From positions 26,421 to 90,420 of the forward strand of contig DULO01000031.1 in NCBI GenBank assembly GCA_012840345.1: a stretch of DNA of 64,000 nucleotides, written 5' to 3'. This DNA is from Candidatus Fermentithermobacillaceae bacterium. Its GTDB lineage: Bacteria > Bacillota > Sulfobacillia > Fermentithermobacillales > Fermentithermobacillaceae. Below the pieces are notes generated by a model. It did no database searches. It was not told the DNA's origin and worked only from the letters and a program-made list of their open reading frames with translations. Every line of letters begins with the position of its first letter. The stretch's first letter is position 1. A program made the position numbers and the translations under genes. This document shows, piece by piece, positions 9,266-47,544 of this stretch.

Positions 9266-9279
9266 GCGTTGGTGACAGG

Positions 9280-12405: not shown

Positions 12406-14132
12406 TGACCTCTCCCCCTCTCCCAGCCTGATAGAACTTGCTCGGGGAAGACGCCAAGGTTCCTGTACCAGCCTATGATTTCACGGGGAGAGATTCTCTC
12501 CAGGGTTCTAAGCTGCGGCCTGGGGCGTCCGTCCACATAAATCCGGGAAAAGCCGGGCGGAAGATCCCGCACGGTCTTTCGTCCGGGTCCCTCGCCCAAG
12601 TCTTCTTGGCGTGAAGGGTCCAACGTGATTTCCACGGCGGAACCATTTGCGATGGGAACTAACGTTATCTCGCCCATACTCACGGGCAGCTGCTCGTACG
12701 TCCCGTCCAATCTCGCCGAGGCCCATCCCGCGCCGACGCGGTCTCTGTCTTCGCCGGGGGCGACCAGGACGGCCAGAGGCAAGAGACTCTCCAGTATGTT
12801 TGCGCTTCCGGAAGGAAGCAGGCCGGCTACCTGCAGCGCGTTGCAAGTATCAAGGTAGACGCCCACGCCTCCCGCGACCTGCGCGCCGTCCATAACCAAA
12901 GACAGGACCGCTTCCCGGGAAAGGACCCGGGACAGGACGCCGGTCACGACTATCCGCCTCAAGGTAGGCATCTTCAAGAGCGTATCCCCGCCCGAGACTT
13001 CCACTTGGAAAGTCTCCCCTACCTGTCTTTGCCGGTGCACGCCGCGAAGTTCTATGGCGGTGGCCTTATGCTCGGCGATACCTTCCCTTATGGCTTCTTT
13101 CCAAACCGCGAGAAAGACCGATAACTCGTTCCAAGTGGTGGGCAAAACGTGCGGCCGGAGTACCAGGTTGCCTATGAAATCGCCCAGGTTTTCCGCCATT
13201 TGAGGGTGAGGAAGCCATTTGGCCACTTTGTTGGGGTTTACCTTGGCGACCGGGGTCACGGTTCTGGTGAACACTCCCTTGATGCCGGAGAAGACCTGCA
13301 CCGCGTCGCCGTCCAGGGACAGGCCCAAGACGTTCTCGCCCGTTTCCTCGTAGAGCCCCTCGAAAGCAAGGCCCGCCGCGTACCCCGACGGGAAGACTTC
13401 CGGCAAACCCAGCTTGCCTAGACCTTGGAACTTAGGGTCAGAGCGCACGTTTTCCGAAAACGAGCCTACGACCGCGTCGCGCGCTGAAGCTAAGTGCTCT
13501 TCCTCGAGCTTTGCCCTAACGTTGTCGGCCCAGATTATCTCGATATCCCCCAGGATCCTGGCCACTTCCTCCCGGGCTTCTTGAGAACCCGCGTAGACCA
13601 GGGGAATCCTGTCATCGCTCCATCCTTTCTTGGGCAACCCTTTGGCTAGGACTCTGGCGATGTTGAGGATCTGATGGGTTCCGGACTCCATAATTTCCTC
13701 GTCTACCCCGCCGGCCATGACGGCGACGGACACATCCTGGCGGCGCAAGTCCGAAATCCTCTCGAAATCCTGGCGGCCGTCATCGACGCAAACCAGATCG
13801 GTCACAGTGGCGCCGGCCAACAAAGCGGCTCTCTTGGCGGATTCCCCCGAGATGCCCTTGACTACTCCCGCGCATACCGCCTTGGGTTCCCCGCCTGCGC
13901 TAAGGGTCACCATGACGCCTTCATTCTCGTAAGAGGACTTGTCCTCTGACATTCGGGATCCGATGACGTCCAGTACCTCGCCCAACCCCAAAGTTCGTTC
14001 ATCTTTGCTCGCCGGCGGCGGAGTGGGACAGGAAACGCGCTCTAGCTGGACAATCCTGCCGCCCTCGATAGCCAGGGCGCGGGCTTCGGTAACCGTACTG
14101 CCTACGTCTATATGAAAGATACTCTTGGTCAT
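12402..14132 (-). CDS. GlmL/MutL-family (EutA-like) ASKHA-fold protein, paralog B
   Basis: The start is ATG MTKSIFHIDVGSTVTEARALA at 14132. This was chosen over the listed longer ORF because the ATG sits 1 nt after the upstream ATPase stop. ~576 aa, same family motifs as paralog A. Confidence 0.65.
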   Translation of the reverse strand: MTKSIFHIDVGSTVTEARALAIEGGRIVQLERVSCPTPPPASKDERTLGLGEVLDVIGSRMSEDKSSYENEGVMVTLSAGGEPKAVCAGVVKGISGESAKRAALLAGATVTDLVCVDDGRQDFERISDLRRQDVSVAVMAGGVDEEIMESGTHQILNIARVLAKGLPKKGWSDDRIPLVYAGSQEAREEVARILGDIEIIWADNVRAKLEEEHLASARDAVVGSFSENVRSDPKFQGLGKLGLPEVFPSGYAAGLAFEGLYEETGENVLGLSLDGDAVQVFSGIKGVFTRTVTPVAKVNPNKVAKWLPHPQMAENLGDFIGNLVLRPHVLPTTWNELSVFLAVWKEAIREGIAEHKATAIELRGVHRQRQVGETFQVEVSGGDTLLKMPTLRRIVVTGVLSRVLSREAVLSLVMDGAQVAGGVGVYLDTCNALQVAGLLPSGSANILESLLPLAVLVAPGEDRDRVGAGWASARLDGTYEQLPVSMGEITLVPIANGSAVEITLDPSRQEDLGEGPGRKTVRDLPPGFSRIYVDGRPRPQLRTLERISPREIIGWYRNLGVFPEQVLSGWERGRGQ

Positions 14133-14133
14133 C

Positions 14134-14838
14134 TCAGCCCTCCCGTGCCATTCCTCCGTCGTATACGCGGGTGATGCGCCCGTCGAGCATCTCCACAACC
14201 CGGTGCGCCCACCTGGTGATCGAAGGATCATGTGAAACCACGACAAAGGTCTGGCCTCTTTCTACATTGAGTCTGTGGAAGATCTCGCCGATCTCCGACG
14301 AAGTCTTGGAGTCCAGATTCCCGGTTGGCTCGTCGGCCAGCACTATCGCGGGTTGGTTGGCCAAGGCCCTGGCGATAGCCACTCGCTGCTGCTCCCCTCC
14401 GGATAGCTCTAAAGGCTTGTGATCTTGCCTTTGGCCTAGGCCTACTTGAACCAAGAGCTCTCTCGCCCGTTCAGTCATGGCCTTCTTGCTCATTCCGCCA
14501 AACCTCATGGGCAACATCACGTTCTCGAGCGCTGTGAAGTGGGCTATGAGGTTAAAGAACTGGAACACGAACCCGACCTTGTTCCGCCTGATCCGGGCCA
14601 GACCGCTTTCGGAAAGCTGGGAGTATCTCTGGCCGTCCAGGATGACATCCCCGCTCTGGGGCCTGTCTAACCCTCCCAAGAGCCCAAGGAGCGTGCTCTT
14701 GCCGCTGCCCGAGGGGCCCATCAAAACGATGAATTCGCCGCGGTCCACTACCAGGTTCACGTCGTTGACCGCGTAGATTGTCTGTCCCAAGTGAAAGGAT
14801 TTCTTGAGGTTCACTGTCCTCAGGATAGGCTCATCCAA
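14134..14838 (-). CDS. ABC transporter ATP-binding protein (MacB/LolD-type), second copy
   Basis: 234 aa with GPSGSGKST, LSGGEQQRVAIARAL and IVLADEPTGNLD. It is a paralog of 6903..7610. Confidence 0.85.
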   Translation of the reverse strand: MDEPILRTVNLKKSFHLGQTIYAVNDVNLVVDRGEFIVLMGPSGSGKSTLLGLLGGLDRPQSGDVILDGQRYSQLSESGLARIRRNKVGFVFQFFNLIAHFTALENVMLPMRFGGMSKKAMTERARELLVQVGLGQRQDHKPLELSGGEQQRVAIARALANQPAIVLADEPTGNLDSKTSSEIGEIFHRLNVERGQTFVVVSHDPSITRWAHRVVEMLDGRITRVYDGGMAREG

Positions 14839-33916: not shown

Positions 33917-34630
33917 TTACCTTACCCTCGCTTTGGCCAGCGCGTCGCTGACCGCCTCGATCCATCCGGTAGAGCTCCTGGTCGCTCCGGCAAAGGCATC
34001 CACACCGGCCTCTCCTTTGGCCACAAAAGCCTTCTCCATGGCGTCCTTGGCTTCCAGCGCCTTTGTGTAGGTGTAGGTGATCCAGTCTCTGAACTGGCCG
34101 TCTTTGGAAACTTCGTTAAGTATTACCTCGGTTATTCTGTCTTCCTTAATCGTCACCCACGCCACCTGATAACCCTCTTCCGTGCCACGGGAGATACCGT
34201 AAAACACCCCGTCGAAGTATGTCGAGGTGACTGTGGGGGTCATTCTCGCTTTCTCAAGGGCCCATCCCACGGCCTCTTTGTACTTTCGAGAGGACTTAGT
34301 GGCGCCCGCGTAGGCGTCAACGGCGGCGTCCTGCCTGCCCAAAAACCGCTTAGCCATTTCAGCGTTGGCTTCTTTCGCTGGCTCGTACTCGTACGTGTCC
34401 AGGTCCTTCTCCCGTCCGTACCGGTCAAACTCGGTTAGTTCCACAGAAACGATCTTGTCTTTCTCGACCGACACCTCCGCCAAGACGTACCCGGTATCGT
34501 CAGCGGAAGAATAAGCCCTGTAAGTGCCGTCGTTGTACACTTTGGGCCCACAAGCGGCAAGAACTACCGAAACCGCCAACGCCAAAAAGCAAAGCACCGC
34601 CGCCTTGGAACAATAACGCGCCCTGTTCAT
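33917..34630 (-). CDS. Lipoprotein with two FMN-binding-like domains
   Basis: 237 aa with a lipobox LAACG and two repeats ending AYAGATKSS / AFAGATRSS (FMN_bind-type). Confidence 0.6.
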   Translation of the reverse strand: MNRARYCSKAAVLCFLALAVSVVLAACGPKVYNDGTYRAYSSADDTGYVLAEVSVEKDKIVSVELTEFDRYGREKDLDTYEYEPAKEANAEMAKRFLGRQDAAVDAYAGATKSSRKYKEAVGWALEKARMTPTVTSTYFDGVFYGISRGTEEGYQVAWVTIKEDRITEVILNEVSKDGQFRDWITYTYTKALEAKDAMEKAFVAKGEAGVDAFAGATRSSTGWIEAVSDALAKARVR

Positions 34631-35227
34631 CCAGAAGACCTCCCGCCCCGCAGGACTTTCTAAGTGTTTGTGTAGAAGGATGGCTTATTCGGAGACTGTT
34701 GACGATTCTTGTCCAACGCACGAAAGCCAGCCAGTCTCAGTGTCGCTCCCCGAAACCCCGGCTGTCAAGGACAAGAAAGTACGCGCACGCTGTCGGTAAG
34801 CGTCGAACGATTCTTTCTTGTCCACAAGGGTATCCACAAAGATGCCTTCGAACTCTATGCATCCCAAAGACCGTGACGCGGTGAATCTACGGGAGGCGGT
34901 AATAGTCAATGAGCAACACGGTAAAGGAAACGTCCAGGTCCTTCGTGGATGGGGAACGAGAGTTCTTTTTGACTTACAGGCTCTCTGCCCAGACAACCGG
35001 TGACGGCCGGGACCAAAGGCACTCCATAACAGCTTTTTCGGTGGAAAAAAGCAAAGCGAGCACACAAAAAGAGTCAACGTGCTCGGTTCACATAATGAAC
35101 CTGTCCGCGGAAACCAGCCTCAGGCTATTTGAGCTCATAGCCCAAGCGGAGAGCCCTGTCTTCCCATGTCACCTGGCCGACATCGTACGGGACCAGATCC
35201 ACGGTATGAGCTTTTGCGAAGTCACCC

Positions 35228-35851
35228 CTAGCGCTGCGAAGGTATGACCCTCGATATCTGAGGCAAAAGGTCGTAGAGCTCGATGAACTCGTCGGCGGCG
35301 TCGACAAGTTCGTCGGCAGCCTTGAAGTTGCACCGGGCGTAGGCGTCGGGATGCTGTGTGGATAACACCTGTATCCTGACGCCTCTCTGGGCGACGGCCT
35401 TTATGAGCGGGACAAAGTCCCCGTCCCCCGACACAAGCACGTACTTGTCGCACCGGTCGACCAGGGACAACATATCGATGGCAAGCTCGAGATCTAAGTC
35501 CGCCTTAATGGAACCTCCGGCGAACACCTTGAGGGGCTTTCTGACCACCATGTAACCGTTTCTGTTGAGGAACCGGTGGAACGACTGGGACCGTCTTCTC
35601 TGGGCGTCCAGCTCTTCTCTTACGGCCTGGGGATCAGGGGAATTTGTCAGCTTAACGTATTGCTCAATGCTGTCGGTAGTCCATTCGCCAGTGTAGTAGT
35701 AAGCTCTGATTAAAATGCTGTCTTTGCTAAGGATCTCAAGGAGTTTTACGAAGTCGACGTGGATTCCAAAGGAGTCATAGGTAGCGTACTTGAAGTTCCA
35801 ACCGTCGACAAAAAAAGCTAGGCGCGATGCGGGAGTAGTGACGTTTTTCAT
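35228..35851 (-). CDS. NYN-domain (LabA-like) protein
   Basis: The start at 35851 is preceded by a GGAGGA RBS. FFVDGWN...VLVSGDGDF are LabA/NYN motifs. A GAGCAC...GTGCTC hairpin plus T-tract ~130 nt downstream of the stop (35055..35090) is a plausible terminator. Confidence 0.75.
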   Translation of the reverse strand: MKNVTTPASRLAFFVDGWNFKYATYDSFGIHVDFVKLLEILSKDSILIRAYYYTGEWTTDSIEQYVKLTNSPDPQAVREELDAQRRRSQSFHRFLNRNGYMVVRKPLKVFAGGSIKADLDLELAIDMLSLVDRCDKYVLVSGDGDFVPLIKAVAQRGVRIQVLSTQHPDAYARCNFKAADELVDAADEFIELYDLLPQISRVIPSQR

Positions 35852-35908
35852 TTGAATCCTCCAGGATACGCACGCGGGGCCAAAGCTACCGTGCGTGGTG
35901 GCGGAAGT

Positions 35909-35985
35909 TGGTGCGCCCGGCGCGATTCGAACGCGCAACCTCTGGCTCCGGAGGCCAACACTCTATCCGATTGAGCTACGGGCGC
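35909..35985 (-). tRNA. tRNA-Arg (anticodon CCG)
   Basis: The reverse complement folds as a cloverleaf: acceptor GCGCCCG/CGGGCGC, D-arm, anticodon stem TTGGC/GCCAG with loop CTCCGGA (anticodon CCG), T-arm GCGCG-TTCGAAT-CGCGC, discriminator A and encoded CCA. Confidence 0.85.
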
Positions 35986-36010
35986 ACACCACATCACCCA
36001 TTATACAGTC

Positions 36011-36346
36011 CTAAATGCGACCTAACAATATCAGGGCGCCTATTACCAGGAACCCGCCTCCTGCGACCGTCTTGATGATACTCTGGGGAACGACCCTGTA
36101 AAGGGTGTCTCCTACCAGTACGCCGATTAGCGAAGACAGGACCAACGCGACCGCGGAACCCAGGAACACGCTCAGAGGAGCCTTCTTGGACGAAGCCAGC
36201 ATCATGGTGGACAACTGGGTCTTGTCTCCCAGTTCGGCGAAAAACACCGCTATGAACGTAGAAAACACTACTTGCCAGTTCAATATGTACGAGCCTCCGG
36301 CTCGTCCCTCCTCCCTGGTTGCCGTAGTTAGAGAGAACGCCGCCAA
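36011..36346 (-). CDS. UPF0016 / GDT1(TMEM165)-like small membrane protein
   Basis: 111 aa with the ELGDKTQL signature motif of UPF0016 cation-transporter halves. Confidence 0.6.
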   Translation of the reverse strand: MAAFSLTTATREEGRAGGSYILNWQVVFSTFIAVFFAELGDKTQLSTMMLASSKKAPLSVFLGSAVALVLSSLIGVLVGDTLYRVVPQSIIKTVAGGGFLVIGALILLGRI

Positions 36347-36399
36347 AATACTATATTAACCCGCAAGAACTGTCCAGAAACGGTTTGAGCGGGAAGGTC

Positions 36400-37734
36400 C
36401 TACGACAGCCCCAATGACTTCGCTTTCTCGTCAATAGCGTCTTGAAGCGTAGGCCGGCCGATCTCCTGAAGTTCGTAGCGGACCCTGGTCCAGGGTTTGT
36501 CTATTTTGGCTATCCTGCTCAAGTCTATGGGCGTGGCCACTACTACCCCATCGCAAGGCGTCTTCCGGATCGTCTCTTCCAGGTCCCTCACTTGCCCCTC
36601 TCCGTATCCCATAGCAGGCAGCAAAGTGCCGATCCTGGGATAAGTCCGGTATGTTTCCAAGATGCTCTTTACGGCGTACTCCCTGGGATCCACCAGTGAT
36701 TCCGCTCTGTAACGTTTGGCGGCGACCACACCCGCGCCAAAGGTCATCTCCCCGTGGGTAAGCGTTGGCCCGTCCTCAATGACCAGCACTTTCTTTCCTC
36801 TGATAACCTCGGGGTTATCCACGAAAATGGGCGAAGCGGCTTCTACCACGATGGCGTCGGGATTAAGGGAATCGATGCTTTCCCTGACTCTCTCCACCCC
36901 GTCGGGCGACGCGGTGTCGACCTTGTTTATTACGATGATGTCAGCCATGCGCAGGTTAGTCTCGCCCGGATGGTAACGCTCCTCGTGTCCCGGGCGGTGA
37001 GGATCGACCAGTACGATGTGAATGTCGGGACGGTAGAACGGTATGTCGTTGTTGCCGCCGTCCCACAAGATGATATCGGACTCAGCTTCCACTCCCCGGA
37101 GTATCCGCTCGTAGTCGACTCCCGCCCATACGACCAGCCCCCGGTCAACTATGGGTTCGTACTCCTCTCGTTCCTCGATGGTGCACTTGTGGATGTCCAT
37201 GTCTTCATAGGTGGCGAATCTCTCCGCGGCTTGAGCCAGAAGGTCCCCGTAAGGCATAGGATGGCGGACGACCCCCACCTTACGGTTCTTGGAGACCAGG
37301 ATATCGGCGACCCTCCGGGTGGTCTGGCTTTTGCCAACACCGGTTCTCACGGCGGTCACCGCGATGACCGGCTTAGTCGACTTCAGCATGGTAGTCTTCG
37401 GGCCCATGATGCGGAAGTCGGCGCCGGCTGCCGCGCACATTGAAGCCTTGTGCATCACGTACTCGTGGGGTACGTCGCTGTACGCGAAGACTACCTCGTC
37501 AACATCATGGGAAGCGATTAGCCGGGGGAGGTCCGCTTCCGGGTAAATGGGAATGCCGTCCTCGTAACCGGGACCCGCCAGTTCCGGAGGGTACCTGCGC
37601 CCCGCTATGTCCGGGATTTGGGCCGCCGTGAAAAACAACACCCTGTAGTCAGGGTTCCCGCGGAAATACACGTTGAAGTTGTGGAAGTCCCTGCCTGCCG
37701 CCCCCATGATCGCGACCTTTTTGGGGTTCCCCAC
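36400..37734 (-). CDS. Cyclic 2,3-diphosphoglycerate synthetase-like (BioD/CobQ-like deviant-Walker-A ATPase) protein, paralog 1
   Basis: 444 aa. GTG start 7 nt after GGAGGA. Deviant P-loop AVTAVRTGVGKSQTT and ILWDGGNND motifs. ~70% identical to the 39917..41239 product. Confidence 0.6.
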   Translation of the reverse strand: MGNPKKVAIMGAAGRDFHNFNVYFRGNPDYRVLFFTAAQIPDIAGRRYPPELAGPGYEDGIPIYPEADLPRLIASHDVDEVVFAYSDVPHEYVMHKASMCAAAGADFRIMGPKTTMLKSTKPVIAVTAVRTGVGKSQTTRRVADILVSKNRKVGVVRHPMPYGDLLAQAAERFATYEDMDIHKCTIEEREEYEPIVDRGLVVWAGVDYERILRGVEAESDIILWDGGNNDIPFYRPDIHIVLVDPHRPGHEERYHPGETNLRMADIIVINKVDTASPDGVERVRESIDSLNPDAIVVEAASPIFVDNPEVIRGKKVLVIEDGPTLTHGEMTFGAGVVAAKRYRAESLVDPREYAVKSILETYRTYPRIGTLLPAMGYGEGQVRDLEETIRKTPCDGVVVATPIDLSRIAKIDKPWTRVRYELQEIGRPTLQDAIDEKAKSLGLS

Positions 37735-37759
37735 TTTTCATTCCTCCTTGAAATCGGCT

Positions 37760-39748
37760 CTAACTGACCGCCCTCGTCTCTTCTGTCCTCGGGGTCTTGA
37801 CCCAGGCCTTGGGTTCTTTCCCCATAGACTTCAACACCAGCGCGCTGGTATATGGCACAGGGAACATGAACGCCGCCAAAGGCAAAAGGAACAATCCCAT
37901 GTAGACACAGAACCTGCCCAACCAGGAGTTGGGACAGCAGCTGTTGTCAAGATGAGCGCTGTACCTGCGAAACGCGTAGAAAGTGAACCCGAGATAGATG
38001 GCGGAAAACCCGCTCAGCATCCACTGTCCCGCCGCCGGCACAAGAGTGGCGTCCATAAGGTCCTGGTGGTGCAACACCATGGCTATTGGCGGCACAAAGG
38101 TGGCCAGTTGGTACAGGACCCACTCCAGCTGGCCCTTGATAATGAGACTCAGGCGCAGCCGTCGTTGGGCTGATCTCTCCACATCCTTATAGGTTAGGAC
38201 CTTGTCGACCACCTGAAGATGTCCGGTGCCCCACCTAAGCCTCTGGCGAAAGAAGGCTTTAAAAGTCGGAGGTGTCTGCTCTGATGACGAATAAGGAAGG
38301 TATTCGGGCCAGGCTCCTCTCAAGAGATAAGCTCTCGTCCCGAACTCAAGGTCTTCTGTGAGTACGTGACAGTCCCACCCTCCTACCTCTCTTAAGAGGT
38401 CGTGAGCTATGAAGACGTTGGTCCCGCCGACAAAAGGCAAGGTGCGGAACAGCCAAGGAAGGTACCAATCGTGGGCGACGGCCTGATACAGGGCGGCAAT
38501 GCGGCAGAAGGGCGTCATCTGGTAGAAGTTCCTTACCTGGAACACGGGGCCTTGCAAGACTCTTGACTTCTCGGGGTCCATCATTCTCCTGTAGCCCACA
38601 TATAGAAGGACATCCTTATGAGGCCTGCTCTCCGCGTCGTAGAACCCGACGACTTCGGTCCTGGGGTCCAGGTAGTTGATTCCCCAGTTCAAAGCCCTAC
38701 CCTTGGTGGACGGTACCGGTCTTCCCGTCTTTTTTCCGTTGAGAGCGCCGTCAAAGTCGTAGGGCACGACCACGTGCCTCACGGCCGGAACGCCTGGTTT
38801 TTGGGCGGCTTCCGAGGCGACTCTGTCCACCACTTCTTGGGTGGTAGGGTATAGATCCAAGAGAGCGTGGCGTATCTTATCCCGTATTTCGCCCGTCCTA
38901 GACGCCTTGCGGACGGCTTGGCACACCCGTTTGGCTATCAAGTCGGTCATCCGCCGGATGATGTCTTGAGTCAGGTCATGGTTCGCCTTGATTGTGTGCT
39001 GAATGGTCCTCCTTAAGATCTTCCGGCTCGATTCGTCGCAGATCTCGGAGTACGCCGCTATGACCGGCACGGCTACCGCCAAGCAAGCGGGATACAGCCT
39101 CTCGATGTCCAGTTCGGAAAGCCACGGACAAGTCTTTTTCAGTATGCCCTTGAGCCTCCCCGCCTGAGGGGCCCCGTGAGAAGCGAGTATGGCGATGCTG
39201 ATGCCTCTCACCACGGCGTGGCGTTCGAGCCCGGGAAGCAGATAGAGCTCGGACGCTCCCGACGGGTAGTCTTTTTGAAAGCCTTTGGACAGGTATTCCC
39301 TCAACGCGTACTCGGAGAGGCAGGATACTATAACGGCCCGGAGTTCCACCTCGTGTCTTGACCGGACTCCTTCCCTTTCCCCCGACAAGATCTCCACGGC
39401 CAAAGCCTCCAAGGCTTTACGGTCTTCTTGAGCCGCCAGGATCTCTTTTTCGTCGGTCACCACCATGACTTCGTAACGGCCTTGCGGGTACCGCAAGGAA
39501 AGCAAATGGTTGATTGTGTTTTCAATGACCAGGGATTCGTTTCGGGCCGGGACCATGATGCTGATAAAAGGAACGGGCCTACCCAGTGAAGCCGCCGTCT
39601 CTTCTATGAAGGCGGGCTTTAGAGTCGGCTTCCTATTCCAGTACTTTCGTTCGCTGTAGTGCTTCCAGACCAGAAACCTGGCAAATAACAAAAAGAACAC
39701 AAGATAAACCGCGTACGCGACGAGGTACAGAGTCTGGGCGGGCGTCAT
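37760..39748 (-). CDS. Processive family-2 glycosyltransferase (membrane, QxxRW type) with large insertion
   Basis: N-terminal TM, SIMVPARNES GT-A motif, DAE(D) motifs, QRLRWGTG and C-terminal TM helices. The start is placed at ATG MTPAQTLY (39748), because the listed TTG at 39844 lies inside the upstream terminator's U-tract. Confidence 0.75.
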   Translation of the reverse strand: MTPAQTLYLVAYAVYLVFFLLFARFLVWKHYSERKYWNRKPTLKPAFIEETAASLGRPVPFISIMVPARNESLVIENTINHLLSLRYPQGRYEVMVVTDEKEILAAQEDRKALEALAVEILSGEREGVRSRHEVELRAVIVSCLSEYALREYLSKGFQKDYPSGASELYLLPGLERHAVVRGISIAILASHGAPQAGRLKGILKKTCPWLSELDIERLYPACLAVAVPVIAAYSEICDESSRKILRRTIQHTIKANHDLTQDIIRRMTDLIAKRVCQAVRKASRTGEIRDKIRHALLDLYPTTQEVVDRVASEAAQKPGVPAVRHVVVPYDFDGALNGKKTGRPVPSTKGRALNWGINYLDPRTEVVGFYDAESRPHKDVLLYVGYRRMMDPEKSRVLQGPVFQVRNFYQMTPFCRIAALYQAVAHDWYLPWLFRTLPFVGGTNVFIAHDLLREVGGWDCHVLTEDLEFGTRAYLLRGAWPEYLPYSSSEQTPPTFKAFFRQRLRWGTGHLQVVDKVLTYKDVERSAQRRLRLSLIIKGQLEWVLYQLATFVPPIAMVLHHQDLMDATLVPAAGQWMLSGFSAIYLGFTFYAFRRYSAHLDNSCCPNSWLGRFCVYMGLFLLPLAAFMFPVPYTSALVLKSMGKEPKAWVKTPRTEETRAVS

Positions 39749-39839
39749 GATGTCGGCTTCCACTCCCTTGTCGGTTAACGCTTTCTGTGCCCAACCAGTA
39801 TTGTTGCGCTTGCCGGATGGGGCTATGCGCCAGCGTAAC

Positions 39840-39873
39840 CTCAAAAGGAAAGCGGTCCCTGTTCGGGACCGCT
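39840..39873 (-). terminator. Rho-independent terminator downstream of cpgS-like paralog 2
   Basis: Minus strand: GCGGTCCC-gaaca-GGGACCGC, a perfect 8-bp stem, followed by TTTCCTTTTGAGG. Confidence 0.6.
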
Positions 39874-39916
39874 CCCAAAAGCCCTCTCAATATCCTTTCT
39901 GGAAGCCTACCGCCTC

Positions 39917-41239
39917 TTAGAGGACGCCTCCCACCGCTTCTATGGCTTCTTTGAGCGTAGGAGTCCCCACCTCTTGAAGTTCATACCGCACGCGCATTGA
40001 CGGCTTGTCGATCTTCATGATCCGCCGCAAGTCTATTGGGGTTGCCACAAGCACTAGGTCACACGGGGTGCGCGCCACCGTCTCTTCCAGTTCCGACACC
40101 TGTTTGGGTGAGTACCCCATTGCCGGAAGCACGGGTCCCAGGTGGCTGTACTTCTCGAAAGTGCGGGCAATGCTGCCTACGCTGTACGGCCGCGGGTCAA
40201 CCAGTTCCAGCGCTCCCCACTTCCGCGCTGCCATAACGCCGGCCCCGTAAGCCATCTCGCCGTGGGTGAGAGTCGGGCCGTCTTCTATGACCAGCACCCG
40301 CTTGCCTGTGATTTCCTGTCCCCTCTCAGGGAACACGGGGGAAGCGGCTTCGACTATTATGGCCTTGGGATTAAGTTTCCTGACGTTGTCCCTGACCGCG
40401 TCCACATTGGCCTTGTCCGCCGTGTCTATCTTGTTGATCACCACTATGTCGGCCATGCGAAGGTTGGTCTCACCGGGATGGTACGAAACCTCGTGCCCGG
40501 GCCTGTGCGGGTCAACCAACACTATGTGACAGTCTGACTTATAGAACGGGATGTCGTTGTTGCCGCCATCCCAGAGGATCACCTGGGATTCTTCCTCCGC
40601 ACGCTTTAGTATTTCGCCGTAGTCAACCCCGGCGTACACAATAATCCCGCGGTCGATGTGGGGTTCGTATTCTTCCCGCTCTTCGATGGTGCACTCGTGA
40701 AGATCCAGGTCCGCGTAGGTTTCGAACCGCTGGCAAGCCTGCTTAGCCAAGTCTCCGTAGGGCATTGGGTGGCGAATAGCGGCCACTTTTTTCCCTGAAG
40801 CGCGCAGGAGCTCCGCGACTTTCCTGGTGGTCTGGCTCTTACCCACGCCCGTTCGCACGGCGCAGACCGAAATCACCGGGTTCCTCGATTTTATGGCGGT
40901 CGCGTTGTACCCGATGAGTTTGAAATCGGCTCCCGCGGAAAGAACTATGGACGCTTTGTGCATAACGTCCACGTGGCTTATGTCGCTGTAGGAAAAGACA
41001 ACTTCATCGACCTTGTGCTTTACTATGAGGTCCGGCAGTTCTTCCTCCGGGTAAATGGGGATGCCGTCTGGGTACCGCTCTCCCGCCAATTCGGGAGGAT
41101 AGCGCCTTCCCTCAATGTTAGGTATTTGCGTGGCGGTGAAGCAGACGACTTCGCTTTGGGGATCGTTCCTGTAAACCGTGTTGAAGTTGTGGAAATCCCT
41201 GCCCGCTGCCCCCATAATGATGACCTTCTTGGCACACAT
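39917..41239 (-). CDS. Cyclic 2,3-diphosphoglycerate synthetase-like protein, paralog 2
   Basis: The start is ATG MCAKKVIIMGAAG at 41239 with a GGAGGAGGAG RBS, colinear with paralog 1. Same P-loop and DGGNND motifs. Confidence 0.6.
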   Translation of the reverse strand: MCAKKVIIMGAAGRDFHNFNTVYRNDPQSEVVCFTATQIPNIEGRRYPPELAGERYPDGIPIYPEEELPDLIVKHKVDEVVFSYSDISHVDVMHKASIVLSAGADFKLIGYNATAIKSRNPVISVCAVRTGVGKSQTTRKVAELLRASGKKVAAIRHPMPYGDLAKQACQRFETYADLDLHECTIEEREEYEPHIDRGIIVYAGVDYGEILKRAEEESQVILWDGGNNDIPFYKSDCHIVLVDPHRPGHEVSYHPGETNLRMADIVVINKIDTADKANVDAVRDNVRKLNPKAIIVEAASPVFPERGQEITGKRVLVIEDGPTLTHGEMAYGAGVMAARKWGALELVDPRPYSVGSIARTFEKYSHLGPVLPAMGYSPKQVSELEETVARTPCDLVLVATPIDLRRIMKIDKPSMRVRYELQEVGTPTLKEAIEAVGGVL

Positions 41240-41277
41240 GAGAAACGCTCCTCCTCCGGTTATACTGGTCTTTTCTC

Positions 41278-42309
41278 CTATCGCGCCCAAACCTCTCCCA
41301 CTATTTCAAGAGGTCTCCGGCACTTGGGACACGCCTTACCGTCCAGGTAAGATGCTTCCAGCTCCATTCCTCCCCGTTCCAGCAAGAGTTCTCCGCATTT
41401 CGGGCACCTCGTGTCCGCGTAACCTGTTTTCCAAGCGTTGCCTATGTAAACATAGTGAAGGTTTCTAAGAGCCACTTCCCTAAGCCTCTCCAAAGTCTCC
41501 GTGGGCGTCACCTGCTCTCGCGACTTGTAGGCGGGAAAGTATCTAGATAGGTGCAAGGGTATGGCGGGGCTCAGGGAACCAAGCCAGCCGGACAGGCCCT
41601 CCATGTCTTCGTCTCTATCGTTCTGGCCGGGTATGACCAGACACGTTACCTCCACCCAAGCACCGTACCTGACGGCGCGTTCCACGGTCTTCTTCACGGG
41701 CTCTAAGCGGCCTCCCGCCAGATCGCGGTAGAAATCCTCATCCCAAGCCTTCACGTCTATGTTGAAGGCGCCTACAAGCGGCAGGACCTCTTCCAGAGCC
41801 TTTGGGGAAATGAACCCGTTGGTTACCATGACGTTCAGAAGCCCCTGTTCGTTTGCCAAACGGGCGGAATCAAGAACAAACTCCAGCCCAACCGTGGGTT
41901 CGTTGTAGGTGTAGGCTATCCCCACCACCCGCCGGTCCGCCTGCCTCCTTTGGGACGCGCAAAGCACGATTTCCTCAGGCTCAAACACCTCACAGTAAGG
42001 CCGGGCCTGGGATATCTGCCAGTTTTGACAAAACTCGCACCGGAAGTTGCACCCGAAAGACCCTACCGATAGCAGCATCCCCCCGGGATGGACGTGAAAG
42101 AGGGGTTTTTTCTCTACCGGGTCTAAGGCCAGCGACGTAACCGCCCCGTAATTCCGGCTTACCAGCTTCCCGTCCAGGTTTTGCCTGACCCTGCAAATGC
42201 CGTACTTGCCGGGCGGGATTACGCAGCCGTGGGGGCAAAGCTCGCAGGCCACCTTGCCTCCCTCTTGGCTCCGGTAAAACCTGGCCTCAGTCGACGGCAA
42301 GCTATCCAT
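41278..42309 (-). CDS. AmmeMemoRadiSam-system-type radical SAM enzyme (PFL-activase-like)
   Basis: 343 aa with CNFRCEFC (CxxxCxxC) radical-SAM cluster motif, an N-terminal CELCPHGC and a C-terminal CPKCG...CPKC zinc-ribbon. Confidence 0.8.
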   Translation of the reverse strand: MDSLPSTEARFYRSQEGGKVACELCPHGCVIPPGKYGICRVRQNLDGKLVSRNYGAVTSLALDPVEKKPLFHVHPGGMLLSVGSFGCNFRCEFCQNWQISQARPYCEVFEPEEIVLCASQRRQADRRVVGIAYTYNEPTVGLEFVLDSARLANEQGLLNVMVTNGFISPKALEEVLPLVGAFNIDVKAWDEDFYRDLAGGRLEPVKKTVERAVRYGAWVEVTCLVIPGQNDRDEDMEGLSGWLGSLSPAIPLHLSRYFPAYKSREQVTPTETLERLREVALRNLHYVYIGNAWKTGYADTRCPKCGELLLERGGMELEASYLDGKACPKCRRPLEIVGEVWAR

Positions 42310-42322
42310 GGCGCAACGCCTC

Positions 42323-43735
42323 TCAATGGTATCTGGTTACTTTGAAACGATACAGCCTTACGTCCTTCTCCCTCTCACCTATGCCGGCCTTGCGCTTGGC
42401 GATGGAGACTTGTTCCTCCACCGTGTTGACGCCTGGCAAGTCGGGCAGCAGCAGGCCTCTGCGCCGTCCCTTTTCACAGATAACCCCATATACCTTAGGG
42501 TCAAGGTCCGAGAGAGACTCGACGGGCTCGGAAGGCGAAAGAACGTCCACAGAGTAGTCCAGGTAGTCCAACTCGGAAGAGTCTACCGGTTCGAACCTCG
42601 GGTCCCTCGCGGCCGCGCTGACGGCGTTGGATATGATCTCCGCCGCCAAGCTGGACGTGGTGGCCTCCGTGGTCCCAATGCACCCTCGAAGGTCTCCCTC
42701 TTTATGGATGGATACGAAGACCCCGCCCCGCTCCAGGAACTCAGCGGGCACATCCTTGGGAACTCCTATGATCCTGCCCGTCTTTACGTACTCCTCCACC
42801 GCCTTTCTCGCCAGGGAGACGGGATAGGACTCGCCGCTCCGGATGGAGTTCATACGTTCCTGGCGCTTGCGGTTGATCTCATCCAAACGGGGGGCCTTGA
42901 GTTCTCCCTTTGGAGTAAACAGGGCCACCGAGTACCCTACCCCGAAAGGTCCTTCGTAAGACAGGACCTGGGACGAAACCTCCACGCGGTCCAAGATGCC
43001 CAGCATGAGGGCGATGGGCCTGAGCCCGCATTCGCCCGCCTCTTCTATCAGGTCTTTGGGCAGCGTCAGTATCTTGGAAGGCTCGAAGTCTCTTAGCAGG
43101 TTTATCAGTTCCCGGTCGAAGACCTCGCCCTTGGGGCTGTACCCCGCGGGAGCATCACGAGTAAGCCTGTGGGACAGATCGCCTGAGCACAACACGGCCA
43201 CCCGGCGTCCCAAGCTCCGGCATGCCCGCTCCACGGCTATGCCCGCTCTGTAAAGGTCCAGAAGGGAAAGGAACCCGATGTTGAGCACTACCATACGCCC
43301 GGCAAAGCCCTTTCGCGCAAGGAAACTCACGGGCACGACGACCCCGTGGTCGAGACGGTCGCCTATCATGTACCGGGAGCGTGTATTCCTGTCCAACAGG
43401 ACGGCCGGGGTGCTAGGGTCTTTGGAGAGCTCCCGAACTAACGCGGAAGCCAGGTCGGAGTCGTTTAGGTAGCGTACGCGGACTTCGGGGGCTCCGAACC
43501 CCGACAGGTCCCCGATAAGCTCCGCTTCATCCCTCACCGACAGGGCATCTCTGAATACCGGGCCGTGGGGGGTGATGACCAACAGGGTTTCAGGTCCGGC
43601 GTCTATGAAGGCGGAAGCGAGCCGGTCCATTGCCCGTCGCGTAGCCAGAACCTTTCTCTCTTCGCCGCGCCCCACCTCGGGGAGCAATATCGCCGGATGC
43701 GGGGCCAGTCCGCACAAGACCACGCTTGTCGTCAC
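42323..43735 (-). CDS. Fusion protein: class-III extradiol-dioxygenase-like (Memo/LigB superfamily) domain + AMMECR1 domain (AmmeMemoRadiSam proteins B+A)
   Basis: A GTG start 2 nt after the racemase stop, with an AAGGTGG RBS. N-terminal CGLAPHPAILLPE...ITPHGPVF...SGDLSHRL (LigB/Memo-like). C-terminal RGCIGT...DPRF (AMMECR1). Confidence 0.7.
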   Translation of the reverse strand: MTTSVVLCGLAPHPAILLPEVGRGEERKVLATRRAMDRLASAFIDAGPETLLVITPHGPVFRDALSVRDEAELIGDLSGFGAPEVRVRYLNDSDLASALVRELSKDPSTPAVLLDRNTRSRYMIGDRLDHGVVVPVSFLARKGFAGRMVVLNIGFLSLLDLYRAGIAVERACRSLGRRVAVLCSGDLSHRLTRDAPAGYSPKGEVFDRELINLLRDFEPSKILTLPKDLIEEAGECGLRPIALMLGILDRVEVSSQVLSYEGPFGVGYSVALFTPKGELKAPRLDEINRKRQERMNSIRSGESYPVSLARKAVEEYVKTGRIIGVPKDVPAEFLERGGVFVSIHKEGDLRGCIGTTEATTSSLAAEIISNAVSAAARDPRFEPVDSSELDYLDYSVDVLSPSEPVESLSDLDPKVYGVICEKGRRRGLLLPDLPGVNTVEEQVSIAKRKAGIGEREKDVRLYRFKVTRYH

Positions 43736-43736
43736 G

Positions 43737-44801
43737 TCAGCGCACCACCTTTTCCACAAATGGAGACGTCGCCGCCTGCAAAAGGGAACTGTAAGCGGGG
43801 ATGAACCGCAGCATTGAGCCAACCTTCACATCCCCCGCGTCCTGAACGTCCAAAATGAGATGGTCTGAAGACGCTCCTAATACCTGCACTCCCGGTTCCA
43901 GAGGGGTCAGCCCGTCAGGATCTATGTCCTGCCGTCCCGCGGCACAGATGGCTCTCTTGCGGATTCCCCGGTCTGGAAAAGTAACCACGAGACCGAAAGC
44001 GTTTTGCCCGACCTGTCCTTCCGGTTTTGAGGGCTTGGTTTGGACTTCTATGACTTCCGCGACTATGGTAAAGGCGTCTGGGTAACACCCGGGGACAGGA
44101 GACCTATGGACCGCTTCCGTCCCCAAAAGCACGCTTTCGCCTATGCGGAGTTCGGTTATCCCCGCGGGCATCTCCTTGTTCATCACCAGGGGCATGTTGG
44201 CCGAATTGCCGCCTGACACGGTTTCCAGCTTTAGTCCTAGGCTCGACTCGATATCGTCCCTTACTTTGAGCAATGCCTCCATCTTCTCCCGGGTCGGGAT
44301 TACCCCGCCGTAGCAAGCCAGGTTCACCCCGATACCCGCCAGCTTCACGCCGTCTTCTGAGCTCATGGCTTTGGCGGTTTCCACTGCCTTGTGGACGGGA
44401 ACTCCCTCCCGGAGGTCTCCCAGGTCCACCATGAGTACCACCTTGTGGGTCCTGTTTGCCTTCCTCGCCGCCTTGGCCAGCATCCTGACGACTTCCACTT
44501 CAGAGTTTAGGCTCACGTCGGCGACCGCTACCGCTTCGTCCACTCGGCTGGGCGCCGGGGACCTCAGGAGCACCGTTTCCCCCGCGTATCCGCCCTCTCT
44601 TGCCCTGGCGAGGTTCTCAACCCGGGAATCAGCTATAGCGGCGGCACCGCCCTCAACCATGGCCTTCACAACCGCGGGGTGACCCAGTACGGACTTGGGA
44701 ACGCCGACCAGCCTCATGCCCAACTCGCCCAGCATAGACGACACCACGCGGGTGTTGTGCCTGATTTTGGCCGTGTCGATAACCAATGCAGGTAGCTTCA
44801 T
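43737..44801 (-). CDS. PLP-dependent alanine-racemase-fold protein (ornithine racemase / YhfX-like)
   Basis: 354 aa, N-terminal TIM-barrel PLP domain (VLGHPAVVKAMVEGGAAAIADSRVENL...VVLMVDLGDLREG) and a C-terminal beta domain. Confidence 0.7.
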   Translation of the reverse strand: MKLPALVIDTAKIRHNTRVVSSMLGELGMRLVGVPKSVLGHPAVVKAMVEGGAAAIADSRVENLARAREGGYAGETVLLRSPAPSRVDEAVAVADVSLNSEVEVVRMLAKAARKANRTHKVVLMVDLGDLREGVPVHKAVETAKAMSSEDGVKLAGIGVNLACYGGVIPTREKMEALLKVRDDIESSLGLKLETVSGGNSANMPLVMNKEMPAGITELRIGESVLLGTEAVHRSPVPGCYPDAFTIVAEVIEVQTKPSKPEGQVGQNAFGLVVTFPDRGIRKRAICAAGRQDIDPDGLTPLEPGVQVLGASSDHLILDVQDAGDVKVGSMLRFIPAYSSLLQAATSPFVEKVVR

Positions 44802-46144
44802 TAGACCAACCCCAGACTTGTCTTTAGAATTGTCATGGCCTCACTCGGCTTTTCTCTGGAAAGCACGCCGCATGCCGCCATGATGTAGTCCTTGTCTATA
44901 AGGATGCGGGCGTCTTTCGGGTAAAGCTCCCTTCCGGCGCCCTGCCCGATCAGTCTCTTCAGTATCTCTTCCCCGCCTGGAAGCCTGGTTAGGGCCCCGC
45001 CTGTTCCGATGATCGTTCCTACGCTAGATAGGTCTTTCCCGCTTGCGACGGCCTGTCTGCCCGACGGCCCGTAAAGATACCGGATTCTGCCGGCGTGCCG
45101 CGAAAACGCGATCTCGCAGGCGGCCTTGGTAAGATACGACACCAAGCGGGATTCACGATCCGAGGGTATCACGCTGAGTTTGTCCAAAAGAGGCTCGGGA
45201 TCAAAGCCAAGCTCAAGAACTGCTCTATCCTTCACTTCTTCATAGACGTTCTTGGCGTTGATGAACACTCCCAAGTCCCCTTCAACGGTCCGTTTGGCCA
45301 AGGGCTCAGGGTTCTCCAGGATGGCCTGGATTTCGGGGCTCCCTTTTGCCACCGAGTGAACGTCGGTCGTGGCGCCGCCCACGTCGAGAGCGCACAAGTC
45401 TCCCAAATCCTCCCACAAGACCTTACACGCTTCCATAACGGCGCCGGGCGTCGGCATTATGGGCCCGTCCACCATTTCCCTGATAGTATCCATCCCCGGG
45501 GCTTTGGTAATGTGCTCCTCAAACGCCGCCTGTATCACCTTTCTGGCGGGCTCCACCACCAGTTCGTCAACTCGCGGAAATACGTTTTCAACAAAGTACA
45601 CCTTGCCCCCGTGGTCCTTGAGGATGTCCGCCACTTCCTGCCTGGCGGCTATATTGCCGGCGTAGATGATTGGGACATCGGGCAGAACTTCGTGAAGCAC
45701 CCTCGCGTTATGCAAGGCGGTAGATTTCTCGCCGTAATCCACCCCTCCGGCCAAGAGCGCTATCTTGGGCTTCACCTTCTGAAGACGCAGAGCGTCGGAC
45801 GAGGTCATCTCGCCGGCGGTTATGAATCTAATCACCGCTCCCGCTCCCAACGCCGCTTCCTTGGCGGCCCTGACGGTCATGTCGTATACCAGGCCGTGGA
45901 CGCTCATGGAAAGCCCTCCGGCCGCGCTGGAAACCGCCATCATGCGGTCGTAGTCCAGCGAACCGGCGCCAAGGGACTCCTTTAGCCGGTCCAAAGCCTT
46001 GCGCAGCCCTAGAGTGACGTCTCCTTGGGCGACAGTGGTCTCCGACACCCCCTGCCCAAGAAACCGCGGGTCTTTCGAAAGGTCAAAAGCGTTCACTACT
46101 GTGGTTGTGCTGCCGATCTCGGCGACCAATGCATGGACTTTCAT
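44801..46144 (-). CDS. Glutamate mutase L (GlmL/MutL)-family ASKHA protein, paralog C
   Basis: 447 aa with N-terminal ALVAEIGSTTTVVNAF and ALDVGGATTDVHSV, the length and motifs of the GlmL family. The preceding RBS is AAGGAGAGG. Confidence 0.75.
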   Translation of the reverse strand: MKVHALVAEIGSTTTVVNAFDLSKDPRFLGQGVSETTVAQGDVTLGLRKALDRLKESLGAGSLDYDRMMAVSSAAGGLSMSVHGLVYDMTVRAAKEAALGAGAVIRFITAGEMTSSDALRLQKVKPKIALLAGGVDYGEKSTALHNARVLHEVLPDVPIIYAGNIAARQEVADILKDHGGKVYFVENVFPRVDELVVEPARKVIQAAFEEHITKAPGMDTIREMVDGPIMPTPGAVMEACKVLWEDLGDLCALDVGGATTDVHSVAKGSPEIQAILENPEPLAKRTVEGDLGVFINAKNVYEEVKDRAVLELGFDPEPLLDKLSVIPSDRESRLVSYLTKAACEIAFSRHAGRIRYLYGPSGRQAVASGKDLSSVGTIIGTGGALTRLPGGEEILKRLIGQGAGRELYPKDARILIDKDYIMAACGVLSREKPSEAMTILKTSLGLV

Positions 46145-46310
46145 TATCGCGACTCCCGCCTCTCCTTAAGCCGCTATTAGCATCAAAACCTCCACCCTCA
46201 TGCATTCTTGCATGAGAGGTGAATTCCTGCCAAAATAAGGGCTCTTAAGGCGTCGCGGGGTTTTCGCGGGTTCGTGGGGTAACCGGACGTTGGGTTAACA
46301 TGGCTCTATA

Positions 46311-47057
46311 CTAGCTGGACGAGTGGACGAAAGAAATGACGGCTTGCCTTATGCATTCCGCAAGCTTCTGTTGGTAAGCGGGCGAACCCAGAAGGGCCTC
46401 CTCCTCAGGGTTTGATAGAAATCCCAGTTCCACGGTGGCCGCGGGGACGTTCCCATAGTTCAACATGAAATGGTCGAGGCGGGCCGAGTGTTCCCTGTCG
46501 GTATCCGTCTCTTTTCTGAGGATTTCTTGGATTAGCCTTGCCAGCTTCTCGGAGTCAGGGTGCTTCTTGGCGTTGTAGAACGTCTGTGCCCCTCTTTCCC
46601 TCGGATCGGTGAACGCGTTGCAGTGGAGAGACAGCACTATGGTGGCCCCTGAGGAGTCGATAAGGCGCTGCCTGGCGGTAACGTCGTCGATTTCGTCGGA
46701 TTCCAGGTCGTAATCTCCCGTGCGGGAGTATACGACCTTGGCCCCGCTCTTCTCCAGCCTGACCCCCAGGTACAAAGCCACGTTCAGGGCTATGTCTTTC
46801 TCGAGGTACCGGCTTCCGCAGGCCCCGGGATCGATCCCGCCGTGGCCGGGGTCTATGTATATAACCTGACCCTCCAGGGGTTTGGTGGTATCCGCCGGCT
46901 CTCCGGCCGAGATCACTCCCCGTTCAATGAGAAACGGGCGTGAAGCGGCGTAGGCGACCAACGCCAGCGCCAGAGACACGGCCACGGACAGTACAGTGTT
47001 CTTATGGACAATAACAAAAAGGGGCCGGCCGGTTTGCCTGCCCCTTCTTCTCGCCAT
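46311..47057 (-). CDS. cwlD: N-acetylmuramoyl-L-alanine amidase, CwlD-like (germination-specific)
   Basis: 248 aa with a signal anchor and Amidase_3 motifs (IYIDPGHGG...LSLHCNA...E). Its position after rplM-rpsI matches Bacillus. Confidence 0.8.
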   Translation of the reverse strand: MARRRGRQTGRPLFVIVHKNTVLSVAVSLALALVAYAASRPFLIERGVISAGEPADTTKPLEGQVIYIDPGHGGIDPGACGSRYLEKDIALNVALYLGVRLEKSGAKVVYSRTGDYDLESDEIDDVTARQRLIDSSGATIVLSLHCNAFTDPRERGAQTFYNAKKHPDSEKLARLIQEILRKETDTDREHSARLDHFMLNYGNVPAATVELGFLSNPEEEALLGSPAYQQKLAECIRQAVISFVHSSS

Positions 47058-47154
47058 ACAAAATCCCCCGCGTGTTGCTTAAGTTACTCCAAAAGATATA
47101 CGGTCGGGCAAGGAAAAATGACAGACCCAACGCCTGTCAGATCCTTCCCAAAGG

Positions 47155-47544
47155 TTAACGCTTGGAGAACTGCGGAGCCTTCCTAGCCTTTTTCAGACCG
47201 TACTTGCGGCGCTCCTTCATGCGCGGGTCCCTGGTCAGGTAACCGGCTTTCTTCAGAGGAGTATGGAAGTTCTCGTCCACTTGGAGTAGAGCGCGGGCTA
47301 CTCCGTGCCTGCACGCTCCCGCCTGGCCGCTTAGGCCTCCGCCGATGACGTTTACCACGAGATCGAACTTGCCCTCGGTCTCCGTCACTCTGAAAGGCGC
47401 GATTACTTCCTGCTCCAAGCTGGGATTCATGAAGTAGCTCGATAGGTCCTTGCCGTTTATCGAGATATTGCCCGAACCCGGGGCAATCCTAACCCTGGCC
47501 ACAGCGTTTTTCCGGCGACCGGTCGCGGAAATGGTCTCTGCCAC
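47155..47544 (-). CDS. rpsI: 30S ribosomal protein S9
   Basis: A GTG start overlaps the rplM stop (TAGTG), with an AGGAGGAG RBS. TGRRK...[10 protein letters not shown]...[16 protein letters not shown]. Confidence 0.85.

Follow-up and report, generated by a model that had tools for sequence, protein, structure and literature searches.

Two ArcE-type arginine synthetase homologs, probable members of a published enzyme family, flank a processive-type glycosyltransferase in a Fermentithermobacillaceae genome

In a 64,000-nucleotide stretch of a genome assembled for a Candidatus Fermentithermobacillaceae bacterium (GenBank GCA_012840345.1, contig DULO01000031.1; hereafter ‘the window’), two genes for closely similar P-loop proteins flank a gene for a membrane-embedded family 2 glycosyltransferase (GT2). 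This arrangement raises the question of what the paired proteins do, and whether they act on the same chemistry as the enzyme between them. A first-pass annotation, made from the sequence alone, described the pair as cpgS-like ATP-dependent ligases of the BioD type and suggested that they modify a sugar polymer or its acceptor. The observation was correct, whereas an enzyme family already described in the literature largely supersedes the interpretation. Judging from homology, we assign a probability of roughly 0.8 to the reading that both genes belong to the ArcE family (arginine synthetase, or ATP-forming arginine deiminase), and we refer to them as arcE-A (copy A, upstream of the GT2 gene) and arcE-B (copy B, downstream of it). 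The locus is a duplicated bacterial member of that family and reveals no new kind of system.

Both paralogs are full-length and intact, and they bracket the GT2 gene, whose product carries the QxxRW signature in the form QRLRW, exactly as had been described. Their amino acid identity is 66% over 431 residues in an ungapped BLASTP alignment, which is somewhat below the value of about 70% given earlier. For copy A, the start was set to the ATG at position 41239, as in its homologs, although the listed open reading frame (ORF) extended to a TTG at 41290. The only reason to suspect an artefact of assembly or binning is that the sequence comes from a metagenome-assembled genome; a duplication by assembly had been considered in the first-pass annotation itself. 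Such an artefact is ruled out by the divergence of a third of the residues and by the identical layout of the locus in four independent metagenome assemblies (the source genome derives from biogas reactors); a distant relative (L092) carries two copies as well. A recent tandem duplication is likewise ruled out, because the two copies are no more alike than either is to archaeal orthologs (66% versus 62–69% identity).

Among the roughly 440 alignment columns, 150 are conserved in at least 95% of the family, and copy A keeps 148 of these and copy B 143. Both copies retain the signature motifs GAAGRDFHNFN, RTGVGKS, RHPMPYG, EEREEYEP, WDGGNND, NKxD, EDGPTLTHGEM and PAMGY, and with all of these kept both appear to be functional. 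In a neighbour-joining tree, copy A falls with the copies that lie upstream in close relatives (Fermentithermobacillaceae-type orthologs), and the sister of copy B is a copy that likewise lies downstream of a GT2 gene (L049). This tree is star-like and poorly resolved.

The characterised member of the ArcE family is TK2200 of Thermococcus kodakarensis, a P-loop enzyme that catalyses the reversible reaction L-arginine + ADP + Pi <-> L-citrulline + NH3 + ATP (Michimori, Yokooji and Atomi, PNAS 2024, PMC11032458; PMC13260591). Its homologs are described as being labelled hypothetical proteins or putative GTPases, as having low similarity to cyclic 2,3-diphosphoglycerate synthetase (cDPGS, the cpgS product) and an LpxK-like fold, as residing near arcB and arcC, and as being widespread in Bacillota, Chloroflexi and other phyla; cDPGS was taken by the same authors as an outgroup (PMC11032458). 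Comparison with TK2200 was made by way of its published primers, which bind at both ends of the coding sequence and, when translated, give MAEKKKKRVLI for the N-terminus and KNCEKLKK* for the C-terminus (2026 paper, PMC13260591). When metagenomes were scanned with a degenerate DNA pattern for the primer-encoded N-terminal peptide, six contigs matched, and the complete ORFs that they carry are 449 amino acids long, begin with MAEKKKKRVLILGAAGRDFHNFN and end in ..KNCEKLKKE. These ORFs bear both TK2200 termini (11 of 11 residues at the N-terminus, and KNCEKLKK at the C-terminus) and match the forward primer at 31–32 of 33 nucleotides, and they can therefore be regarded as close Thermococcus relatives of TK2200. 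In ungapped alignments with them, copy A is 63% identical over 431 residues and copy B 64% identical over 436.

Several further features are shared with the published enzyme, including near-equal length (440–449 residues), the N-terminal GAAGRDFHNFN block, a P-loop fold for which LpxK and cDPGS are the nearest structures, a family neighbourhood of ornithine carbamoyltransferase (OTC) and carbamate kinase genes, and database names of the ‘GTPase’ or ‘hypothetical’ kind. The homologs found here bear the names ‘GTPase’ or ‘cyclic 2,3-diphosphoglycerate synthase’. The family is large, with at least 8000 matches and 715 clusters at 50% identity among those with E<1e-30, and part of it is unusually conserved: the window protein is 62–69% identical to members from Chloroflexota, Acidobacteriota, Bathyarchaeia, Thermoplasmata and Heimdallarchaeota, and the Thermococcus proteins fall in the same ArcE core clade. 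The statement in the first-pass annotation that bacterial homologs of cpgS have no characterised function is thus outdated, given that the family has a published ArcE function (PMC11032458). The symbol arcE in a paper on Saccharibacteria (PMC12815258) denotes an unrelated arginine/ornithine antiporter, which is a collision of names only.

Genomic context across the family was surveyed in 80 genomes or loci from diverse phyla. Of the 80 loci, 17 have a carbamate kinase gene no more than 3 kb away in the same orientation (13 of them within 300 bp), and 8 have an OTC gene within 3 kb of arcE. A co-directional arginyl-tRNA synthetase (ArgRS) gene precedes arcE by no more than 600 bp in 18 loci (16 of them within 300 bp), most of them from Chloroflexota (L007, L010, L011, L013, L016, L018, L027, L032, L033, L043, L050, L057, L060, L061, L064, L074, L079 and L081). 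It was these neighbours from arginine metabolism that led us to consider the ArcE identity. Where arcE adjoins the ArgRS gene, the enzyme may supply arginine, operating in the anabolic direction and not in catabolism. A GT2 gene is near arcE in only 1 of the 80 loci, and the proposal of an ATP-dependent phospho-modification of a sugar polymer or acceptor finds no support in a family whose partners are carbamate kinase, OTC and ArgRS and not glycosyltransferases. The step assigned to ArcE, from arginine to citrulline and ammonia, is the same as that of the arginine deiminase pathway (ArcA-ArcB-ArcC); it likewise feeds OTC and carbamate kinase, and the same kind of operon partners are seen in related genomes. 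However, ArcA, a hydrolase unrelated to ArcE, does not conserve energy, whereas the ArcE step is reversible and coupled to phosphorylation of ADP.

The relationship to cpgS that was noticed earlier is real at the level of the fold, but does not extend to orthology. An AlphaFold2 model of copy B (mean predicted local distance difference test score, pLDDT, 89.9) was compared with the Protein Data Bank (PDB) using Foldseek, and cDPGS ranked first (E=1e-16, 14% identity, TM 0.45–0.49), followed by LpxK (E=9e-9) and then HypB and MeaB. The cDPGS of Methanothermus fervidus (PDB 8ORK/8ORU; PMC10690619) has the same two-domain P-loop architecture, and the Walker A and Walker B motifs can be aligned. 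Sequence similarity to the window proteins extends over only some 110 residues (phmmer E=2.6e-5 and 2e-3; profile E=7e-8). In cDPGS, K145 and R146 of the P-loop bind 2,3-diphosphoglycerate (PMC10690619). These residues, within GTGKRIGKT, oppose T and G of RTGVGKS in the window family, a mapping that is approximate because the profile alignment is weak there. Similarly, ADLVIIT of cDPGS is replaced by ADIVVINKID, and cDPGS is restricted to hyperthermophilic methanogens.

The proteins are not BioD-type ligases either, since the CbiA Pfam model gave only E=0.009 (16 bits, where 25 are required) and no BioD was among the top 50 Foldseek matches, where cobyrinic acid a,c-diamide synthase appeared only at E ~2e-3. 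Scans with Pfam and NCBIfam found no model for the ArcE family and returned only partial cobW/HypB matches, which are misleading, and sequence comparison with PDB entries gave nothing close to the paralogs. The first-pass annotation had allowed that the proteins might fall in a different P-loop family, and with the ArcE assignment this is in effect what was found.

Several observations weigh against the ArcE assignment. The link to TK2200 runs through close Thermococcus relatives that bear the primer-encoded termini and not through the TK2200 sequence itself, and the biochemistry of ArcE comes from one archaeal enzyme only (PMC11032458). The family retains the NKxD motif although TK2200 favours ADP, with GDP giving 8.4% of the activity (PMC11032458). 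Copy B deviates at 7 of the 150 conserved columns, compared with 2 in copy A. Genes for OTC, carbamate kinase, ArgRS and an arginine transporter are all absent from the 64-kb window. Finally, one or both neighbours of the GT2 gene are arc genes even where the GT2 proteins are only 46–48% identical, which hints at more than accidental synteny. The window genes also differ from TK2200 in being bacterial (Bacillota) and in forming two old paralogs, one of which (copy A) shares an operon with ornithine racemase- and GlmL-like genes and the AmmeMemoRadiSam genes while the other (copy B) lies downstream of GT2.

The flanked enzyme is supported as a processive-type, membrane-integrated polysaccharide synthase, as first proposed. 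No variation among 57 homologs is seen in D100, DAE372-374, TED465-467 and QRLRW503-507, which correspond to the D, DxD, TED and QxxRW motifs of processive synthases such as BcsA, Chlorella virus and vertebrate hyaluronan synthase (HAS), chitin synthase and PcManGT. The AlphaFold2 model (pLDDT 90.3) comprises an N-terminal helix, a GT-A domain and five or six C-terminal helices, so that, as in those enzymes, a GT-A domain is predicted to pack against bundled transmembrane and interface helices; the top Foldseek matches are Chlorella virus HAS, BcsA, PcManGT, Chs1 and CesA. In contrast to the BcsA, HAS and Chs types, the window protein carries an all-helical insertion of about 215 residues (residues ~101–316) directly after the VVTDEKE strand, the second strand of the GT-A domain, and has no PilZ domain. 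This insertion is confidently modelled and weakly conserved, and no equivalent was noticed in the HAS or BcsA matches. Sequence similarity to BcsA is marginal (E ~0.007), and the family is narrow, with 498 matches that are mostly from Bacillota.

The association between GT2 and arc genes is confined to one lineage of Bacillota, in which it was found in 8 of 10 loci sampled, and OTC or carbamate kinase sometimes takes the place of copy A. Four loci (L088–L091) with GT2 proteins 56–71% identical to that of the window have the order (oraE-or4-orr)-Memo/AMMECR1-radical SAM-ArcE-GT2-GDT1-NYN with no downstream ArcE copy, and in two of them (L088 and L089) oraE-or4 is seen upstream. At 46–48% identity, the orders are radical SAM-OTC-GT2-ArcE-FUR-GDT1 (L087), radical SAM-carbamate kinase-GT2-ArcE..GDT1 (L049) and radical SAM-OTC-ArcE-(two opposite-strand genes)-GT2-ArcE-GDT1 (L092), the last with two ArcE copies. 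A locus without GT2 (L017) reads or4-orr-carbamate kinase-OTC-ArcE, and GT2 orthologs in Dethiobacter (L085, 44%) and Symbiobacteriaceae (L086, 47%) have no arc neighbours. The full-length second arcE of L092, past GT2 at positions 9009–10307, is absent from public gene calls, which leave a gap of 1.5 kb, and was found only by tblastn. Because the neighbours of GT2 are interchangeable (ArcE, OTC or carbamate kinase), they are expected to share a location or regulation with it and not a reaction. The presence of GT2 among arc genes is thus a lineage-specific synteny and not a family-wide functional link, and no new sugar-modifying chemistry is shown.

A gene for a GDT1 (UPF0016) cation transporter follows GT2 or arcE-B in seven related loci. 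In L087 (11497–12217), a gene for a FUR-family regulator lies between ArcE and GDT1, and in the Dethiobacter locus (L085, 10055–10351) a gene for a CsoR-type repressor follows GT2. The half-size GDT1 and these regulator neighbours hint at metal-linked regulation of the GT2 module.

Two distinct transcription units had been suggested for the locus on the basis of a perfect GC-rich hairpin with a U-tract between the upstream paralog and GT2, and this suggestion fits what we find. The spacer between arcE-A and GT2 measures 168 nucleotides. On the minus strand, 41 nucleotides past the stop codon of copy A, it contains the hairpin AGCGGTCCC-GAACA-GGGACCGCT followed by TTCCTTTT (39876–39843; 39840..39873 and 8 bp in the earlier description). 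The stem has 9 perfect base pairs, or 12 when G.U pairs are included, and a predicted free energy of -22.3 kcal/mol. A standard terminator scan misses this structure, as G.U pairs extend the stem into the T-tract. Both strands of the window were searched for stems of 9 or more perfect pairs that include 6 or more G-C pairs, close a loop of 3–8 nucleotides and are followed by 6 or more T residues within 10 nucleotides; this hairpin was the only site of its class in 64 kb, compared with a mean of 0.1 in shuffled sequences. Hairpins with unrelated stem sequences occupy the same position in five related loci (L088, L089, L090, L091 and L049), and all but L090, where the hairpin itself is strong, have a T-rich tail. 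The alternative suggestion of attenuation is not supported with respect to known RNA families, since an Rfam scan of positions 34000–47500 at a permissive threshold detected no riboswitch or leader in the arcE-A/GT2 or arcE-B/GDT1 spacers and reported only tRNA.

Between the hairpin and the start of GT2 lies a second conserved element, the block G[AC]ATA-N15-CGnnAnAnTA, which is invariant across five orthologous leaders and has a similar counterpart in L092. A wider form that covers the window and L088–L092 is G[ACT]AT[AG]-N15-(C)GnnAnAnTA. The promoter-like pattern occurs once in the window versus 0.02 occurrences expected. It fits the Bacillus subtilis SigF consensus GYATA / GGnnAnAHTR, for which a GAATA variant is known (Wang et al. 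2006, quoted in bioRxiv 10.1101/2023.12.01.569620), as a match to the consensus only. Given a terminator at a conserved position with this SigF-like motif after it, GT2 and arcE-B, whose start is 25 nucleotides past the GT2 stop, probably form a separate unit, with termination occurring after arcE-A. This unit is possibly controlled by sporulation. GDT1 has a sigma-70-like site of its own (36376–36348). A gene for a cwlD-like amidase is found after rpsI (46311–47057), and together with the SigF-like motif it indicates that the organism is probably a spore former.

Features of the locus and their coordinates are collected in Table 1. All genes of interest reside on the minus strand and are transcribed in the order or-4, Orr-like racemase, Memo/AMMECR1 fusion, radical SAM enzyme, arcE-A, GT2, arcE-B, GDT1 and tRNA-Arg. 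From or-4 to arcE-A the intergenic gaps are only -1 to 38 nucleotides, the first value reflecting the 1-nucleotide overlap of or-4 and the racemase gene, and for this reason the block is read as one operon.

Table 1. Features of the arcE–GT2 locus (positions are those of the window).
Feature	Coordinates	Strand	Evidence and remarks
or-4, GlmL-related ornithine-degradation protein, first gene of upstream operon	44801..46144	-	NCBIfam NF040744 632 bits (cut-off 600); Pfam MutL E=4e-156
Orr-like pyridoxal phosphate-dependent racemase (ornithine racemase family)	43737..44801	-	Pfam Ala_racemase_N; NCBIfam NF040742 396 bits, below cut-off 480
LigB/Memo-like + AMMECR1 fusion (AmmeMemoRadiSam proteins B and A)	42323..43735	-	Pfam LigB, AMMECR1; TIGR04335 143 bits; public contigs give 470 aa
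AmmeMemoRadiSam system radical SAM enzyme	41278..42309	-	TIGR04337 292.6 bits (cut-off 220)
arcE-A (copy A), probable arginine synthetase homolog, last gene of upstream operon	39917..41239	-	440 aa; homology
Intrinsic-terminator-like hairpin and T-tract, arcE-A/GT2 spacer	39843..39876	-	stem 9-12 bp, dG -22.3 kcal/mol
Promoter-like motif GCATA-N15-CGCAACAATA, upstream of GT2, SigF-like	39799..39828	-	consensus match only
Membrane-embedded processive-type GT2, 662 aa	37760..39748	-	Pfam Glyco_trans_2_3; start set to ATG used by homologs
arcE-B (copy B), second probable arginine synthetase homolog	36400..37734	-	444 aa; homology
Single-domain GDT1/UPF0016 cation transporter, 90 aa	36011..36283	-	Pfam GDT1 E=3e-23
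tRNA-Arg (CCG), closes the arcE-GT2-arcE-GDT1 block	35909..35985	-	ARAGORN; Rfam tRNA 66 bits

Three paralogs of the GlmL/MutL family (ASKHA) are encoded in the window, all on the minus strand (3954–5750, 12402–14246 and 44801–46144). The or-4/orr pair of the window lacks adjoining oraS/oraE genes, which precede or-4 in L088 and L089. The AmmeMemoRadiSam genes (fusion and radical SAM) directly precede ArcE, OTC or carbamate kinase in the window and in seven related loci (L087–L092 and L049), and in L049 the radical SAM gene alone of the pair lies within the contig. The same association with arcE was not seen in the other phyla sampled. Given this position in eight loci, one possibility is that AmmeMemoRadiSam acts in arginine or ornithine metabolism.

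Other explanations for the paired genes can be weighed against this evidence. If the paralogs were ATP-dependent ligases of the cpgS/BioD type working with GT2, they might act on a phospho-sugar by phosphorylation or cyclisation, or alter the polymer or its acceptor. That no PDB structure matches better than cDPGS is consistent with such a role, as is the flanking of GT2 by arcE-like or other arc genes in the window, L049, L087, L088–L091 and L092. However, this explanation is already largely refuted by the family assignment, and we regard it as very improbable: identity is 63–64% to ArcE-type ORFs versus 14% to cDPGS, the two residues that bind 2,3-diphosphoglycerate are replaced, 79 of the 80 family loci have no nearby GT2 and instead have neighbours from arginine metabolism, the GT2 orthologs of Dethiobacter and Symbiobacteriaceae lack such a neighbour, and a terminator lies between copy A and GT2. 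We would give equally little credence to the paralogs being G3E-type GTPase metallochaperones (CobW/HypB/UreG/MeaB-like) that supply GT2 with a metal (for example Mn2+), the corresponding cation transporter being GDT1. The cobW Pfam model does score 27.7 bits against a cut-off of 20.7, NKxD is conserved, HypB and MeaB are among the weaker fold matches, and GDT1 trails GT2 in all related loci, with the FUR and CsoR-type regulators of L087 and L085 in addition. Yet the cobW match is confined to some 65 residues in the final part of the profile (positions 112–179), the conserved columns contain no CxCC or His-rich metal motif, the characterised enzyme of the family prefers ADP (PMC11032458), and the family context is arginine metabolism.

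An explanation that retains the ArcE identity, and that we consider unlikely, holds that copy A is a catabolic ArcE while copy B has been neofunctionalised, either to accept another ureido or guanidino substrate or to operate in the anabolic direction, and is coupled to GT2-GDT1, possibly in the forespore. Its position argues for this, because a copy directly downstream of GT2 recurs in L049, L087 and L092, where the GT2 proteins have diverged to 46–48% identity, and because arcE-B begins so close to the GT2 stop behind a conserved SigF-like motif. The pairing with the L049 copy in the tree and the seven substitutions at highly conserved columns, which include G150N, G343R and P352E, point the same way. 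Nevertheless, all signature motifs are intact, copy B is no less similar to the Thermococcus proteins than copy A (64% versus 63% identity), and the tree is poorly resolved. In addition, the closest relatives (L088–L091) have lost the downstream copy yet keep GT2-GDT1, and therefore GT2 does not need copy B. Since every family motif is retained, arcE-B, an old and slightly more diverged paralog, most likely encodes the same reaction under different regulation.

Returning to the reading of both genes as ArcE family members, the following roles can be proposed. Homology, fold, motifs, gene contexts and the hairpin with its positional conservation are established by the data, whereas we infer the enzymatic activity in this bacterium and the direction of flux. 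As the last gene of an operon with ornithine-catabolism genes, arcE-A can be tied to the fermentation of arginine to ornithine. Coexpressed with the ornithine racemase- and GlmL-like genes, its product would convert arginine to citrulline with the formation of ATP. OTC and carbamate kinase, which would have to be encoded outside the window, would then complete a route that yields two ATP per arginine, and the ornithine would enter a branch of racemase and aminomutase, as suggested by the genes in L088 and L089. Expression of the upstream operon is predicted to end at the strong intrinsic terminator after arcE-A, and GT2 and arcE-B, perhaps with GDT1, would constitute a second unit behind their own SigF-like promoter motif; here too, we infer actual termination and the sigma factor involved. 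A more speculative extension, which we think rather improbable, is that GT2, arcE-B and GDT1 form a module of spore-forming Bacillota, insulated by the terminator and driven by a forespore promoter of the SigF/SigG type. Such a module might couple arginine-derived ATP, or arginine derived from citrulline, to the synthesis of a spore-associated polysaccharide or to the energy supply of the forespore or germinating spore.

Recognition of the ArcE family corrects the annotation of thousands of bacterial genes that are misnamed ‘GTPase’ or ‘cyclic 2,3-diphosphoglycerate synthase’. For the peptide-fermenting Bacillota of biogas reactors, an ArcE identity means a predicted gain of two ATP instead of one for each arginine fermented, and it places ArcE beside ornithine-degradation genes. 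The two-copy arrangement provides a natural test case for possible differences in direction or regulation between ArcE paralogs. Likewise, the conserved neighbourhoods that we describe (AmmeMemoRadiSam with arc genes, GT2-arcE-GDT1, and ArgRS-arcE in Chloroflexota) provide leads on the physiology of bacterial ArcE and on the function of AmmeMemoRadiSam.

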